A stretch of 64,000 bases of DNA from Verrucomicrobiia bacterium (GTDB lineage Bacteria; Verrucomicrobiota; Verrucomicrobiia; Limisphaerales; UBA1319): contig OY760937.1 in assembly GCA_963664225.1 (NCBI GenBank), forward strand, positions 576,001 to 640,000, read 5' to 3'. Below are positions 41,142 through 47,756 of the stretch, in pieces (the first letter of the stretch is position 1; every line of letters starts with the position of its first letter). The notes beneath the pieces were generated by a model that was not told the origin of the DNA, searched no databases, and was given only the letters and a program-made list of their open reading frames with translations. A program made the position numbers and the translations under genes.

Positions 41142-41191
41142 GCATGTTCGAGCGCTCAGAATCTGCAGTCAAAAAGTATTCAACAACAGAT

Positions 41192-42532
41192 ATGAAACAT
41201 TTCGAATTTGTTAATGAAATTGGAAGAGGTGGATTTGGCGTGGTTGAAAAAGTCCAAGATGATGCCGGTAGCTTGTATGCTCGAAAGTCATTTGAACCCG
41301 CTTCGTTTATCCCGATATCTGCACACGATGGACTACGCGATCGATTCAAGCGAGAAGTAAAAATACAGGCAGCGATTGGAGGTCGTGAAATTATGCCCGT
41401 GTTACATTCTCATTTGGAGCATGCAAAACCATGGTTCATTATGCCTCTCGCGGACAAAACCTATGATCAACAGATTGTGGAAGAGCGGGCATCCGGCAGC
41501 GTTGATATTGACGCGATTGCCGACATATTGAACGCATTAGAGTACCTCCACGATTTGGGTTACGTCCATCGTGATTTGAATCCTAAGAACATTCTCCTAC
41601 ATGATGCTCACTGGAAATTGTCTGATTTCGGAGCTGTGCTGCCACCATCTGGTCAAACCGTGACATTGACCGAAGGCACTGTAATATACACAGAGCAATA
41701 TTGTGCTCCTGAGCAAAGAAACTCATTTCACAAAGCAAAAGCATCTGCGGACGTTTATTCCTTTGGCTGCATCCTACACGATATATTTGGGAAGGGACCG
41801 AGAATTCCATATTCTAAACAAAGTGCAATCGGGCGTGTTGGATTGCTTATAGAAAAATGTACTGAAATTAAACCCGACCGTCGACCGAGCATCAAGGTCC
41901 TTCGTGGAATGCTTCTCGAAACGCTCGTTGAAATAGGCGGCCATTGCAAAGTAGTCGACGAGAAGTCAGAGCATTGGCTGCAAAAATTGAGTTTAATTGA
42001 CGAATGGAGAGACGAAGAATTTGATGACTTTGCGAGATTCTTTGGCCAACTCGATATCGAAGAGCGATTAGATGGACACGAAAATGAGTATATTTGTTCT
42101 TTATCGACACCATTTCTAACGCGATTACGGCCTGAGATGTTAGTAAAAATTATGCAACGCGATGATGGTGTTTCAAATGCAGTTATGGAGAAATACTGTG
42201 AATGGTCCCGCAAAGATGAATGCGCATTTCATTTTGCTGACACGGTATGCGGTTGCTTAACTGCAATTTTCGATGCAGGGGATGCAGAAACTAAAGCTCT
42301 TGCCCTTACTGCACTTATCTCACTGGGAAATTCACATAATCGTTGGTATGTGATGCGGAATATGCTTCGACGATGTTCCGCTGAAAATATCAGTGCTGAG
42401 CTCGCTAGACGTTTTTCGATTGAAATTAAAACGGAAGAATTACAGTCGGAATTTAGACGTTGTGTTATTGAAATAAATTGGGATGCTCAGCTGCTTCATC
42501 CTGAGTTAGCTAAACTCTGCACCTATGCCTGA
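41192..42532 (+). CDS. Soluble Hanks-type Ser/Thr protein kinase with unknown C-terminal helical domain (AT-rich)
   Basis: GRGGFGVV; ARK; HRDLNPKN; DFG; YCAPE; DVYSFG; no TM. Alternative start at 41144. Confidence 0.9.
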   Translation: MKHFEFVNEIGRGGFGVVEKVQDDAGSLYARKSFEPASFIPISAHDGLRDRFKREVKIQAAIGGREIMPVLHSHLEHAKPWFIMPLADKTYDQQIVEERASGSVDIDAIADILNALEYLHDLGYVHRDLNPKNILLHDAHWKLSDFGAVLPPSGQTVTLTEGTVIYTEQYCAPEQRNSFHKAKASADVYSFGCILHDIFGKGPRIPYSKQSAIGRVGLLIEKCTEIKPDRRPSIKVLRGMLLETLVEIGGHCKVVDEKSEHWLQKLSLIDEWRDEEFDDFARFFGQLDIEERLDGHENEYICSLSTPFLTRLRPEMLVKIMQRDDGVSNAVMEKYCEWSRKDECAFHFADTVCGCLTAIFDAGDAETKALALTALISLGNSHNRWYVMRNMLRRCSAENISAELARRFSIEIKTEELQSEFRRCVIEINWDAQLLHPELAKLCTYA

Positions 42533-42650
42533 TGGAACGAAAAGACAACATGGGGTGGTCGGGTGCGGGAAGATCCACTACACCTGATCACTGGGCTTGC
42601 TTCGATAAATCGGACACAGACGACGCATATAGGTTGATTGGATCTATTTT

Positions 42651-42970
42651 GGGTGCATGACAGAATTCTTCGGCAAGCGAAAAAGACCTTTAAAAGGGCA
42701 TGTGAGTATATACGAAACAAATATAGCAAGAGTTTCGGGAATGGCCGGGTGCCGATTGAGGGTCCGGCAAAAATCAGATCTGAAAGGACGACCGCCCTCA
42801 TCCCTTCCTTCTCCCCCAGGAGAAGGAGAAGTATTGCGAGCCCTGGGTTTATTGCACGGTTTGGAGGATACCACCGCGCCGGATTATATGCCCCACACCG
42901 CCGACTGGCGTTCTGGCTGGGTTCGTACGGTTTAGGCTTTTACCAGCTTCCTGAATTTTGTCCTGCACCC
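42651..42970. mobile_element. MITE-like element (320 bp) with 18-bp TIRs and a 9-bp target duplication
   Basis: gggtgcatgacagaattc ... gaattttgtcctgcaccc (16/18); flanks atctatttt / atctaattt (8/9); internal REP hairpin. Confidence 0.75.
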
Positions 42971-42972
42971 AT

Positions 42973-43137
42973 CTAATTTAAAGCAGGAGACATGTAATCG
43001 AGTTTGCTGTGTAAATGCTGTCGATTATAGAAGGTCTCGATGTAATCAAAGATTGCCTGTCGGGCCTGGGCTCGGGTCGCATAGGCCCGGCGATAAACCA
43101 GTTCGTGTTTGACCGTGCTCCAAAAGGATTCCACGGC
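42973..43137 (-). pseudogene. IS3 transposase OrfB C-terminal fragment
   Basis: About 54 codons of integrase core C-terminus; upstream portion replaced by the repeat array. Confidence 0.85.
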
Positions 43138-43149
43138 GCGCCGTTGGCG

Positions 43150-46100
43150 CTGGGAATGTAAAACCGGAACGAATGTTTTGCGACCCCTGCCGGGGTCGGG
43201 GTCGATTGCATGGGGTTTCCGGGGGTGTCGGTCGCAGACGACCTCAACCGCCCGGCTAATCGCTAGCATCCCTCCGGGATGGTGTTGGTAAACATGGTGC
43301 TCTTGGAATGGGCGCGATTGAGAGCATGGATGGGCAGGTTTGGGAAAGGGGATTTGATTCAACGCCTACAGCGTTGGGGTTTCCAGGGGCGATTACCCTG
43401 GGTAGGCCTCGGCGGCCAATCCGGGGCTGAGTGATTGCAACCCGTTCCGGGTTGCCGGTGAGGAGGTTCTGGCAGGAGAGGCCGTGGATAGGGATAATGG
43501 ATAATTGACAATTGAAGGAAGGGAAGTTGCGCAGGTCGCGGGATGGGATGGAGCGGGCTTCAGCCCTTGTTGTGGTTGTGGCAGATTACCTGGGCCGGTG
43601 GCCCAGGCTGGTATGAGGTCGCGCCGTTGGCGCTGGGGCTGGGTGTGATTGAGGTTGGGACGGTGTTGTTCACGGGGGGGGTGATTGTGCAGCAGTTGAG
43701 GAAAAACGCGGAGGGCGAAGGGCGGATGATGGCTCGGCAGGAGCCTCGCCCTACCGGGGGTGACTGGGATTTGTAAATCCGGAATGAATTTTCTGCGACC
43801 CCAGCCGGGGTCGGGTTCGATTGCGTGGGGGTTCCGGGGGTGTCGGTCGCGGACGACCTCAACCACCCGGCTAATCGCTTGCATCCCTCCGGGATGGCGA
43901 TGAGAAACATGGCGCTCTTGGAATGGGCGCGATTGAGAGCATGGATGGGCAGGTTTGGGAAAGGGGATTTGATTCAACGCCTACAGCGTTGGGGTTTCCA
44001 GGGGCGATTACCCCGGGTAGGCCTCGGCGGCCAACCCGGGGCTGAGTGATTGCAACCCGTTCCGGGTTGCCGGTCGGGATGTTATGGTAGGAGAGGCCGT
44101 GGATAGGGATAATGGATAATTGACAATTGAGGGAAGGGAAGTTTCGCAGGTCGCGGGATGGGATGGAGCGGGCTTTCAGCCCTTGTCGCGATTGTGGCGG
44201 ATTACCTGGGCCGGTGGCCCAGGCTGGTATGGGGTCGCGCCGTTGGCGCTGGGGCTGGGTGTGATTGAGGTTGGGACGGTGATGTTCACGGGGGGGGTGA
44301 TTGTGCAGCAGTTGAGGAAAAACGCGGAGGGCGAAGGGCGGATGATGGCTCGGCAGGAGCCTCGCCCTACCGGGGGTGACTGGGATTTGTAAATCCGGAA
44401 TGAATTTTCTGCGACCCCTGCCGGGGTCGGGGCCGATTGCGTGGGGTTTCCGGGGGTGTCGGTCGCGGACGACCTCAACCGCCCGGCTAATCGCTTGCAT
44501 CCCTCCGGGATGGCGTTGGTAAACATGGTGCTCTTGGAATGGGCGCGATTGATCATGGATGGGCAGGATGGGGAAAGGGGATTTGATTCAACGCCTACAG
44601 CGTTGGGGTTTCCAGGGGCGATTACCCCGGGTAGGCCTCGGCGGCCAACCCGGGGCTGAGTGATTGCAACCCGTTCCGGGTTGCCGGTCGGGATGTTATG
44701 GTAGGAGAAGCCGTGGATAGGGATAATGGATAATTGACAATTGAGGGAAGGGAAGTTTCGCATGTCGCGGGATGGGATGGAGCGGGCTTTAAGCCCTTGT
44801 CGCGATTGTGGCGGATTACCTGGGCCGGGGCCCAGGCTGGTATGGGGTCGCGCCGTTGGCGCTGGGGCTGGGTGTGATTGAGGTTGGGACGGTGTTGTTC
44901 ACGGGGGGGTGATTGTGCAGCAGTTGAGGAAAAACGCGGAGGGCGAAGGGCGGATGATGGCTCGGCAGGAGCCTCGCCCTACCGGGGGTGACTGGGATTT
45001 GTAAATCCGGAATGAATTTTCTGCGACCCCTGCCGGGGTCGGGGTCGATTGCGTGGGGTTTTCGGGGGTGTCGGTCGCGGACGACCTCAACCGCCCGGCT
45101 AATCGCTTGCATACCTTCGGGATGGCGTTGGTAAACATGGTGCTCTTGGAATGGGCGCGATTGAGAGCATGGATGGGCAGGTTTGGGAAAGGGGATTTGA
45201 TTCAACGCCTACAGCGTTGGGGTTTCCAGGGGCGATTACCCCGGGTAGGCCTCGGCGGCCAACCCGGGGCTGAGTGATTGCAACCCGTTCCGGGTTGCCG
45301 GTCGGGATGTTATGGTAGGAGAGGCCGTGGATAGGGATAATGGATAATTGACAATTGAGGGAAGGGAAGTTTCGCATGTCGCGGGATGGGATGGAGCGGG
45401 CTTTCAGCCCTTGTCGCGATTGTGGCGGATTACCTGGGCCGGTGGCCCAGGCTGGTATGGGGTCGCGCCGTTGGCGCTGGGGCTGGGTGTGATTGAGGTT
45501 GGGACGGTGTTGTTCACGGGGGGGGGTGATTGTGCAGCAGTTGAGGAAAAACGCGGAGGGCGAAGGGCGGATGATGGCTCGGCAGGAGCCTCGCCCTACC
45601 GGGGGTGACTGGGATTTGTAAATCCGGAATGAATTTTCTACGACCCCTGCCGGGGTCGGGGTCGATTGCATGGAGTTTCCGGGGGTATCGGTCGCGGACG
45701 ACCTCAACCGCCCGGCTAATCGCTTGCATCCCTCCGGGATGGCTTTGGTAAACATGGTGCTCTTGGAATGGGTGCGATTGATCATGGATGGGCAGGATGG
45801 GGAAAGGTGATTTGATTCAACGCCTACAGCGTTGGGGTTTCCAGGGGCGATTACCCCGGGTAGGCCTCGGCGGCCAACCCGGGGCTGAGTGATTGCAACC
45901 CGTTCCGGGTTGCCGGTCGGGATGTTATGGTAGGAGAAGCCGTGGATAGGGATAATGGATAATTGACAATTGAGGGAAGTGAAGTTTCGCAGGTCGCGGG
46001 ATGGGATGGAGCGGGCTTCAGCCCTTGTTGTGGTTGTGGCAGATTACCTGGGCCGGTGGCCCAGGCTGGTATGGGGTCGCGCCGTTGGCGCTGGGGCTGG

Positions 46101-46984
46101 GTGTGATTGAGGTTGGGACGGTGTTGTTCACGGGGGGGGTGATTGTGCAGCAGTTGAGGAAAAACGCGGAGGGCGAAGGGCGGATGATGGCTCGGCAGGA
46201 GCCTCGCCCTACCGGGGGTGACTGGGATTTGTAAATCCGGAATGAATTTTCTGCGACCCCTGCCGGGGTCGGGGCCGATTGCGTGGGGTTTCCGGGGGTG
46301 TCGGTCGCGGACGACCTCAACCGCCCGGCTAATCGCTTGCATCCCTCCGGGATGGCGATGAGAAACATGGCGCTCTTGGAATGGGCGCGATTGAGAGCAT
46401 GGATGGGCAGGTTTGGGAAAGGGGATTTGATTCAACGCCTACAGCGTTGGGGTTTCCAGGGGCGATTACCCCGGGTAGGCCTCGGCGGCCAACCCGGGGC
46501 TGAGTGATTGCAACCCGTTCCGGGTTGCCGGTCGGGATGTTATGGTAGGAGAGGCCGTGGATAGGGATAATGGATAATTGACAATTGAGGGAAGGGAAGT
46601 TTCGCAGGTCGCGGGATGGGATGGAGCGGGCTTCAGCCCTTGTCGCGATTGTGGCAGATTACCTGGGCCGGTGGCCCAGGCCGGTATGGGGTCGCGCCGT
46701 TGGCGCTGGGGCTGGGTGTGATTGAGGTTGGGACGGTGTTGTTCACGGGGGGGGTGATTGTGCAGCAGTTGAGGAAAAACGCGGAGGGCGAAGGGCGGAT
46801 GATGGCTCGGCAGGAGCCTCGCCCTACCGGGGGCGACTGGGATTTGTAAATCCGGAATGAATTTTCTGCGACCCCTGCCGGGGTCGGGGTCGATTGCGTG
46901 GGGTTTCCGGGGGTGTCGGTCGCGGACGACCTCAACCGCCCGGCTAATCGCTTGCATCCCTCCGGGATGGCGTTGGTAAACATG
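43150..46984. repeat. Non-coding tandem array, about 6.2 copies of a 612-617 bp hairpin-rich mosaic unit
   Basis: Unit starts at 43150, 43764, 44380, 44992, 45609, 46222 and 46837; near-identical copies with small indels that break reading frames. Confidence 0.97.
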
Positions 46985-47157
46985 CCTCCCCGATGGGGCA
47001 TGGAGGAAATGGATAATGGGGATTCGAATTTGCTCGATTTTGAGGAGGTGGATTTTTGGTGGCAGGGTGAACAATATGAAAGGCTCTGGCTTGATTGCGG
47101 CGGGGATTTATGAGAGGGATTGGGAAGGGCTGGGTTTGCGGTAAAATTGTTGAGGGA

Positions 47158-47592
47158 ATGATGAATCGATTTTTTTGGCAGCGTTGGTTGGTGACGACTT
47201 TGTCGGTGCTGGTGGCCAGTCATGTGGTGCCGGGGATTCGCTATGAATCGCTGGGGGGGCTCGTTCTGGCGGCACTGGCGCTGGGGGTGCTCAATGCGCT
47301 GGTGCGGCCTGTGATTGTTTTTTTTACGCTGCCGCTGGTGCTGTTCAGCCTGGGGTTTTTCCTGCTGGTGATTAATGCGGGGGTGCTTTACATGGTGGGC
47401 CAGATTGTTCCGGGGTTTCACGTGGTGGGATTCTGGCCGGCGTTCTGGGGAAGCCTGGTGATCAGTGTGGTGGGATTTTTTGCGAACCGGGTGATTGGAC
47501 CGCCGCAATTACCCAGGCAGGGATCAAATCCGGGAAGCGGACGGGCGAACGGGCCCGGCGGCAGTGGCAGTGGGCCGGTTATCGATGTTTAA
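47158..47592 (+). CDS. YvlD-like four-TM membrane protein (phage holin family 4)
   Basis: LGVLNALVRPV...TLPL...LGFFLLVINA...VPGFHV.GFWPAFWGSL. Confidence 0.85.
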   Translation: MMNRFFWQRWLVTTLSVLVASHVVPGIRYESLGGLVLAALALGVLNALVRPVIVFFTLPLVLFSLGFFLLVINAGVLYMVGQIVPGFHVVGFWPAFWGSLVISVVGFFANRVIGPPQLPRQGSNPGSGRANGPGGSGSGPVIDV

Positions 47593-47756
47593 CCCGAAAT
47601 CCGAAATAGGAACGGCCCGTCTGACGCAATCATTTGGCCATCCATGGTTTGAAATCGGCTGTGGAGTATTGATTTAATACACCCTCGCCGATTGCAAATC
47701 ATGGCTGCCTCAAAGCATTGCATCATCTTGACCCTTCGTATTTCGGATTTCGGGTT
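47591..47756. repeat. Perfect 18-bp inverted repeat pair spanning the ends of convergent genes
   Basis: aacccgaaatccgaaata (47591-47608) / tatttcggatttcgggtt (47739-47756). Confidence 0.75.

Follow-up and report, generated by a model that had tools for sequence, protein, structure and literature searches.

A tandem array in a Verrucomicrobial chromosome as a probable amplified cluster of hairpin modules that flank RAYT-like transposase genes

What is a 3.8-kb run of head-to-tail copies of a ~615-bp unit, rich in short hairpins and encoding no recognizable protein, and how did it come to stand in a bacterial chromosome? The array in question lies at 43150–46984, on the plus strand, of a stretch of 64,000 nucleotides (hereafter the window; positions 576,001 to 640,000 of contig OY760937.1, assembly GCA_963664225.1) from a Verrucomicrobiia bacterium of the order Limisphaerales, a soil-type organism of Verrucomicrobiota subdivision 3. 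The original prediction, made from the letters of the window, took it for an amplified mosaic of repetitive extragenic palindromes (REPs) of the kind mobilised by HUH enzymes (REP-associated tyrosine transposases, RAYTs), possibly amplified in a rolling-circle-like way, and proposed BLASTN of the unit against the genome and relatives, a profile search for RAYT or IS200 TnpA proteins, a covariation analysis and a check of whether coverage fitted fewer copies. The analysis described here indicates that the unit is a mosaic of dispersed three-hairpin modules which flank small transposase genes elsewhere on the chromosome, and that the array is likely to have grown by exchange between these modules.

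The array comprised 6.24 copies of a unit of 612–617 bp, aligned in MAFFT, with the spacing taken from a repeat search; the six full units were 94.5–98.5% identical to each other. In a genome-wide run of TRF, with the maximum period set to 2000 (genome coordinates minus 576000 give window positions), the array was reported at 619150–622984 with a period of 615 and 6.2 copies, and its score of 7221 was the highest among arrays of the genome with a period of at least 60. The better TRF reading was a period of 1229 in 3.1 copies, with 96% matches. When the period limit was 500, TRF did not report the array, because the period of the unit exceeds this value. Repeat search, MAFFT and TRF thus confirmed the predicted number of copies (about 6.2), their starts and their lengths, and the eight hairpins that had been listed were all present.

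The plus strand of the array was G-rich, with a GC skew of +0.23 to +0.37. Its longest open reading frames (ORFs) were on the minus strand (129–291 amino acids) and covered no more than about 1.1 units, the one of 291 amino acids extending into the right flank, and no Pfam match was obtained for any of the four array ORFs searched, in agreement with the prediction that the unit is non-coding. A repetitive protein gene, whether intact or decayed, was rejected, since the unit lengths are mostly not multiples of three, no open frame runs through the units and no Pfam match was found. Equally, a CRISPR-like array was rejected: it is the entire 615-bp unit that repeats, with no unique spacer between copies, just as had been predicted.

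The proposed BLASTN of one unit against the genome resolved it into a mosaic of dispersed elements, in the order A, B, D and C. Element A (unit positions 29–133) had ~30 BLAST copies outside the array, element B (~202–305) ~59 and element C (575–611) ~34 other copies in the genome, while element D (392–491) had fewer dispersed copies than the other three; D-like copies were also present in two relatives (G002 and G004). The linkers between the elements (134–197, 311–391 and 492–574) had 1–25 other copies. Covariance models built for the two largest families gave 37 A-type matches of at least 67 bits in the genome (model R2), seven of them inside the array, and 72 B-type matches of at least 84 bits (model R1), six of them inside the array. 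The array's 13 copies of A and B all lay in direct orientation on the plus strand, 173–190 bp apart and with a period of 615 bp. The coordinates of these elements and of the neighbouring features are listed in Table 1.

Table 1. Features of the array and its surroundings, in window coordinates
Feature	Position	Strand	Basis or remark
Tandem array	43150..46984	+	Full units start at 43150, 43764, 44380, 44992, 45609 and 46222; partial 148-nt unit 46837-46984
Element A, ~113 nt, three hairpins (unit 1)	43173..43286	+	Model R2; matches of 110-124 bits in the array
Further copies of A	43788-43901, 44404-44517, 45016-45129, 45633-45746, 46246-46359, 46861-46974	+	Model R2; the last copy closes the array
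Element B, ~113 nt, three hairpins (unit 1)	43346..43458	+	Model R1; matches of 118-126 bits; covariation
Further copies of B	43961-44073, 44575-44687, 45189-45301, 45804-45916, 46419-46531	+	Model R1
Element D (unit 6)	46613..46712	+	Hairpins gggct/agccc, cctgggcc/ggcccagg and gcgcc/ggcgc; same place in each full unit
Element C (unit 6)	46796..46832	+	Hairpin ggctc/gagcc within a longer imperfect stem
Tail of element D (third hairpin), abutting the first A	43138..43153	+	84% over 164 nt to 4882.1 kb
IS3-family transposase, 3' remnant (rve_2/rve_3 C-terminus)	42971..43137	-	Pfam; breaks off at the D tail; multi-copy insertion sequence piece 42984-43137
Transposable element of the miniature inverted-repeat type (MITE), 320 bp	42651..42970	+	Terminal inverted repeats; 9-bp target duplication; within the end of the IS3 remnant
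Ser/Thr protein kinase gene (left flank)	41144..42532	+	Pfam, Pkinase, 100 bits
Small membrane-protein gene (right flank), conserved in relatives	47095..47592	+	Pfam, Phage_holin_4_2, 105.9 bits

A, B and D were alike in architecture: from the 5' side, a short hairpin is followed by a variable stretch and then by a long central hairpin, after which come a conserved linker and a short 3' hairpin; for A and B this was read from an alignment of 101 distinct copies. The hairpins of A included cgacccc/ggggtcg, ggtcg/cgacc and catccc/gggatg, and those of B included caacgc/gcgttg and gcaaccc/gggttgc. The conserved linker reads GCTAAT... in A and GCTGARTGATT in B. In the central stem of B, a conserved A-A mismatch lies within GGGTAG/GGGTGG and is followed by a small palindrome, giving an inner hairpin tagged with GTAG/GTGG. 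The modules were extragenic: over B modules the longest open frame had a median of 131 amino acids, versus 474 at random points, and a frame of at least 200 amino acids ran over 18 of the 72 modules, versus 1740 of 2000 random points. The elements of the unit are ~113-nt modules of three hairpins and not simple REPs of 20–40 bp. Thus the predicted REP identity was upheld as far as a hairpin mosaic linked to HUH enzymes is concerned, and was not upheld for the simple 20–40-bp palindrome.

The proposed profile search yielded nine ORFs matching Pfam Y1_Tnp, all elsewhere on the chromosome; none falls within 576001–640000, and the window accordingly lacks a Y1 transposase, as had been stated of mobilising enzymes. 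Two of the nine were canonical IS200 TnpA genes with other ends. Six were RAYT-like, with translations of 155–160 amino acids that carry an HVH (HUH) motif and a tyrosine in a YIxxQ context. Among the nine loci, the array unit matched by BLAST only those of Y5, Y6 and Y7. An A module begins at the stop codon of both Y5 (3264016–3264501) and its paralog Y6 (81% identity), and an inverted A variant ends a few bases before the start of each gene. Y7 (3202484–3202957) has a direct B at its stop codon and an inverted B that ends 1 nt before the upstream limit of the open frame, 19 nt upstream of the ATG. Dispersed copies of A and B retain at their 5' edge the last codons of the respective transposase gene. 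The genes were few and the modules many, with one Y7 for 72 copies of B and two paralogs (Y5 and Y6) for 37 copies of A. As flanking repeats, A and B are cognate to small RAYT-type Y1 HUH transposase genes elsewhere on the chromosome. The core of the original prediction, an amplified REP mosaic tied to RAYT enzymes, therefore holds, with the enzymes encoded away from the array and flanked by A or B.

Four further Y1-type genes (193877–194359, 2207256–2207732, 3599096–3599563 and 3015629–3016519) were found amid repeated hairpins of their own, and the downstream flanks of two of them gave 31 and 38 BLAST matches, indicating that the genome holds several parallel pairs of transposase and repeat. 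A link between element D and Y4, a fourth RAYT-like gene with similar cctgggc hairpins in its flanks, was considered and found unsupported, as BLAST of the unit matched only the Y5, Y6 and Y7 loci.

The association of module and gene was conserved well beyond this genome. A search with Y7 against named public genomes found 183 relatives, and the layout was counted by hand at the best 80 (65–77% identity), almost all of which are labelled Verrucomicrobia subdivision 3, Pedosphaera, Limisphaerales or Verrucomicrobiia, a few being labelled Planctomycetota or clearly mis-binned. At 74 of these 80 loci a plus-strand B started downstream, 8 nt before the end of the ORF or within +26 nt of it, and at 69 a minus-strand B ended upstream, ~19 nt before the ORF start; of the six loci without a downstream B, one was cut by the end of its contig. 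For the Y5 type, 30 loci (29 from other genomes and the one of this genome) were counted by hand, and an A-type module lay within ~100 nt of the ORF at 25 of them and at none of the other five. Of 121 genomes from the order, this genome included, 75 contained B modules according to model R1; the model gave no match in a metagenome-assembled genome (MAG) of the same genus. Four inverted pairs of B with gaps of 463–628 bp were picked by hand, and all four enclosed a Y1 ORF, three of them clear from the translation and the fourth from a protein search.

Head-to-head dimers of B, with gaps of 0–3 nt or small overlaps, were also seen. They have the layout of the transposase locus minus the gene, equivalent to a REP doublet forming a hairpin (REPIN), and are common in relatives (e.g. 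L132, L097 and L128; G039, G024, G053, G076 and G120) and present once in this genome.

How, then, did modules of this kind become a tandem array? An A module stands near each end of the array, whose start is 23 nt ahead of the first copy and whose end is 10 nt past the last; the whole thus consists of n units plus one extra A, as expected of unequal exchange or slippage between direct copies of A that are 615 bp apart. Among the units 60 columns were variable, 21 of them private to unit 1 at the edge. The shared variants were distributed over units 3 and 5 (six sites), 2 and 6 (four), 1 and 5 (four) and 1, 5 and 6 (two), and the partial unit 7 was nearest to unit 3 (99.3%). That units which are not neighbours share variants in blocks points to several exchanges, with registers of one, two and four units, rather than to a single burst. 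Nor was the arrangement confined to this array: 5 of the 45 long-period arrays of the genome hold at least two modules (periods 204, 237, 296, 615 and 819), those of 237 and 296 bp end 4–16 nt from the 3' edge of a module, and direct runs of B with a spacing of 333–380 bp were found in two other genera.

We therefore consider the array likely to be a cluster of non-autonomous hairpin elements resembling a BIME (bacterial interspersed mosaic element), tandemly amplified by exchange between modules and most likely without a dedicated function. In outline, the modules would be spread by the Y1 enzymes acting in trans, as hairpins of single-stranded DNA, and would collect in intergenic stretches that tolerate them, a "junkyard" which in this case adjoins an IS3 remnant and a MITE. 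Unequal recombination or replication slippage could then have used two direct long-form copies of A, 615 bp apart, as homology and doubled the DNA between them, and later unequal exchanges in one-, two- and four-unit registers, together with gene conversion, would have expanded and partly homogenised the array. The product would most likely be selfish or neutral DNA, and if it influenced supercoiling, protein binding or the transcription of the membrane-protein gene downstream, this would be a secondary matter.

IS200/IS605-type enzymes work through circular single-stranded DNA intermediates and insert next to a short target that matches their own end. The enzymes themselves might have made the array, if a Y1/RAYT-like transposase nicked at a module and produced tandem copies by rolling-circle-like synthesis, or by re-insertion of a 615-nt single-stranded circle beside its target. 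Such circles and end-matching targets are on record for IS200/IS605 enzymes (PMC6006769), A modules, where the enzyme presumably acts, mark both ends of the array, and direct tandem runs of modules with varied periods recur in this genome and in other genera. However, recombination between two direct modules predicts module-bounded arrays equally well, and the block-shared variants and the divergent edge unit are easier to reconcile with unequal exchange that recurred than with a burst of identical copies. The contigs yielded no circle junction or joint; they are short unitigs in which the sides of the listed joints were under 30–59 letters and came from other repeat copies. We thus regard amplification by the enzyme as unlikely; the rolling-circle-like route of the original prediction in particular is disfavoured by the sharing of variants between non-adjacent units, by the divergence of the edge unit and by the position of the array bounds at A modules.

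A bolder form of the same idea, which we also rate as improbable, is that the ~113-nt module could be the complete recognition-and-cleavage cassette of an uncharacterised Verrucomicrobial clade of Y1 enzymes, and that the enzyme would build arrays (204–819 bp in period here, 333–380 bp elsewhere) by re-insertion of circles. If true, this would amount to a transposase-driven making of satellite-like DNA in bacteria, with modules of two enzyme lineages carried in each unit.

The covariation analysis that had been proposed was made for B on a hand-drawn structure of 26 pairs, and its stems covaried both in this genome and across relatives. In 32 diverse copies from this genome, 89.8% of the cells paired, versus 81.5% in shuffles; 10 of the 26 pairs had changes on both sides, and the covariation score was 0.226 versus 0.090, a value reached in none of 500 shuffles. 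In slid controls, in which the partner was moved by 1–3 columns, pairing fell to 30–52%. Among 148 distinct copies from 80 loci of other genomes, 92.6% of the cells paired and 18 of the 26 pairs were compensatory, in an alignment that was fitted to the model and so leans towards it. Folded as single-stranded DNA, one unit had a z-score of -2.46 on the plus strand, equalled by 1 of 20 shuffles, and of -3.84 on the minus strand, equalled by none of 20.

This structural constraint on the hairpins would also be expected of an array that has a function of its own, either as a structured RNA (a precursor of unit-length RNAs or a long leader of the membrane-protein gene) or as a DNA site where gyrase, IHF-like or other nucleoid proteins gather, a role proposed for BIMEs of E. 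coli. The array lies directly upstream of, and in the same orientation as, the conserved gene on its right, and BIMEs are reported to bind several proteins (PMC2817692). The constraint, however, is explained by the link to the transposases and belongs to the modules wherever they occur, not to the array in particular. Rfam 15 gave no family at its gathering score; the best match, Acido-Lenti-1, reached 19.1 bits versus the required 37, was confined to the 3' portion of A in just four units and was absent from other A copies and other module loci. No tRNA or tmRNA was found in the sequence searched. Promoter-like sites numbered 2 versus 2.3 expected and terminator-like sites 1 versus 6.4 expected, that one lying outside the array. 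In addition, the wobble pairs of the stems have no strand asymmetry, and no copy of the unit was seen in relatives next to the conserved gene on the right. A dedicated function of the array is accordingly quite improbable.

The number of copies was compared with sequencing depth, which was taken from short unitigs of public runs, none of them spanning the array. In run X1, the pieces in the flanks had a depth of 16.3–18.4; a piece specific to unit 1, whose 31-mers occur 1.03 times in the assembly, had a depth of 15.2, and the piece at 44039–44432, whose 31-mers occur 4.06 times on average, had a depth of 69.9. The depths of the pieces tracked the multiplicities of their 31-mers, and depth in X1 therefore fits the assembled copy number, so that the coverage check did not point to fewer copies; X1 may be the source data of the assembly. 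That the locus is an assembly artefact, with fewer or many more units in truth and 6.2 copies as a product of mis-resolved repeats, is most improbable, for although the depths come from short unitigs that do not span the array, and those in runs X3–X5 are off expectation, the ratios in X1 match the multiplicities, the 60 variable sites form a structured pattern not expected of a collapsed or inflated repeat, and the genome was assembled as a single 5.78-Mb contig.

Several observations weigh against a BIME-like cluster amplified by exchange, and are collected here. In runs X3–X5 the depths departed from the assembled copy number, array pieces being far deeper than the flanks and the insertion sequence piece likewise; in X4 and X5 (over 42400–47700 of the window) the unitigs of the array and of the IS3 element were 10–60 times deeper than those of the flanks, and the dominant population in these two runs may carry the repeats elsewhere or in greater number. 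About 40% of the unit (134–197, 311–391 and 492–574) has few copies elsewhere, and among the Y1 loci of the genome no transposase was identified for D and C. The whole 615-bp unit was not found in 40 relatives or in the same-genus MAG, these being fragmented MAGs prone to the loss of repeats, so the array may be private to this strain.

Other points concern the enzymes and the folding. The NCBIfam model for REP-associated tyrosine transposases (NF047646, cut-off 80) gave no match to Y5 and scored 38 bits for Y3 and 45 bits for a canonical IS200 TnpA; Y5 passed only the general IS200 model (64 bits versus 55). Because the curated RAYT model was not reached, we call these proteins RAYT-like by their layout and not as members of the equivalog, a departure from the known REP/RAYT systems; the putative role of the Y1 proteins is drawn from the position of their genes and from knowledge of the family. 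The modules are also larger than a REP, ~113 nt with three hairpins versus one palindrome of 20–40 bp, and those of the array are all direct, whereas a BIME alternates its REPs with short linkers between them. B modules showed no bias in replication strand (23 of 42 clusters, with origin and terminus only roughly placed), and the stems of B showed no wobble asymmetry, with 42 G-T and 42 A-C mismatches; these being equal, there is no indication of which strand folds or whether RNA is involved.

The surroundings of the array are themselves composite. On the left, a kinase gene, a MITE and the remnant of an IS3 transposase gene precede the array, and on the right stands a conserved gene, so that the array sits in nested mobile-element debris at the edge of a region of conserved synteny. 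The kinase gene consists of DNA of 40–44% GC in a genome of 56% GC, had no DNA match in 40 relatives and was probably acquired recently. The junction between D and A at which the array starts recurs at 4882.1 kb of the genome. The MITE has six other copies in the genome (92–98% identity); target duplications of 9 bp were seen at all seven copies, four of them perfect, and its inner motif of ~43 nt (42788–42830) was found at 86–95% in many relatives.

Two features of the genome at large were also noted. A separate family of tandem arrays with a period of 85 bp occupies about nine loci (e.g. 3271747–3273279, 1989448–1990469, 2584338–2585016 and 505635–506256), with up to 18 copies and 90–97% matches, and one of these arrays abuts a B module. 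The cumulative GC skew never declines, rising over 0–1.25 Mb and 3.75–5.78 Mb and remaining flat over 1.5–3.5 Mb, and with this genome-wide excess of G on the plus strand the placement of origin and terminus is uncertain.

These findings extend the picture of REPs and RAYTs, drawn mostly from Proteobacteria, to soil and freshwater members of Verrucomicrobiota subdivision 3. A module that keeps a fixed place across many genera, over the stop codon and as an inverted copy ~19 nt before the start, forms with its gene a clean and testable pair of substrate and enzyme, and offers a way into how Y1 enzymes read complex single-stranded DNA. The findings also account for long non-coding tandem arrays of a sort that annotation pipelines leave blank and that break short-read assemblies. 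The size of an array and its richness in hairpins do not imply a dedicated function, and the interest of this one lies mainly in the pair of module and enzyme that it exposed, less in the array itself.

Among known systems, the closest comparison is with REPs, BIMEs, REPINs and RAYTs, which are well described (PMC3733652, PMC5581495). REP clusters are mosaic, and large ones recur as tandem repeats that take in the DNA beside them (PMC3733652); insertion sequences occur within or beside them (PMC1525189). The system described here shares these traits with the REPtron (REP or BIME plus RAYT) of Enterobacteria, Pseudomonas and Stenotrophomonas, as it has GC-rich, hairpin-forming, extragenic repeats in tens of copies, a small, low-copy Y1 HUH gene between inverted repeats, mosaic clusters reiterated in tandem with flanking DNA (PMC3733652) and an adjacent insertion sequence (PMC1525189). 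Of the traits by which membership was judged, multi-copy extragenic hairpin repeats, inverted flanks on a Y1 gene, and few enzyme genes for many repeats were found, and membership of the curated RAYT protein family was not. The system differs in the period of the array, 615 or 1230 bp versus tens of bases, and in that modules of two transposase lineages (A and B) are interleaved with D and C in each unit. The tag of a classical REP is a terminal GTAG or CGTC, while here GTAG/GTGG and a short palindrome lie within the central stem of B, inside a ~113-nt module. In the literature found, REPs of Verrucomicrobia were described only for Opitutus terrae, with families that include GTGG-tagged ones (PMC3733652, in its available part), and the literature search returned no paper tying Pedosphaera or Limisphaera to REP or IS200 terms.

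A second system, the TIRtron, in which inverted repeats that exceed a REP in length flank a RAYT-like gene (TIRYT) and may overlap its 3' end (Di Nocera et al. 2013, PMC3733652), is similar in several respects. Some of its repeats are partly self-complementary and some overlap the gene end, as here, and its families are moderately abundant and occur as singles, dimers or clusters (PMC3733652). Those families, however, come from Acidobacteria, Stenotrophomonas and others, and the available part of the TIRtron description (PMC3733652) contains neither a three-hairpin module nor an example from Verrucomicrobiota subdivision 3.

An IS200/IS605 insertion sequence was rejected, as the flanking modules are inverted and there are no near-identical copies of the gene. 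The likeness to this family lies in the Y1 HUH transposase (Pfam Y1_Tnp) and in hairpin ends presumably read as single-stranded DNA. The modules of an IS200/IS605 element would be co-oriented, whereas those here are inverted, and the genes here are single-copy or old paralogs (81% identity) beside modules in 37–72 copies.

A REPIN, as reportedly defined by Bertels and Rainey in 2011, consists of two inverted REPs that form one long hairpin. The modules here resemble REPINs in being non-autonomous and derived from the flanks of a RAYT gene, and the head-to-head dimers of relatives, seen once in this genome, are of the same form. In contrast, the array holds only direct single modules, each of which folds by itself into three hairpins rather than pairing with a second one. 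The array is thus a genuine, unusually large and explicable cluster of the REP/BIME type, akin to those of E. coli and Pseudomonas but larger, and not a new kind of system; it departs from the known ones in its ~113-nt three-hairpin module, in the place that this module keeps at the ORF in many genera, in an orientation that is direct throughout, in the period of 615 or 1230 bp, and in the interleaving of two lineages in one unit.

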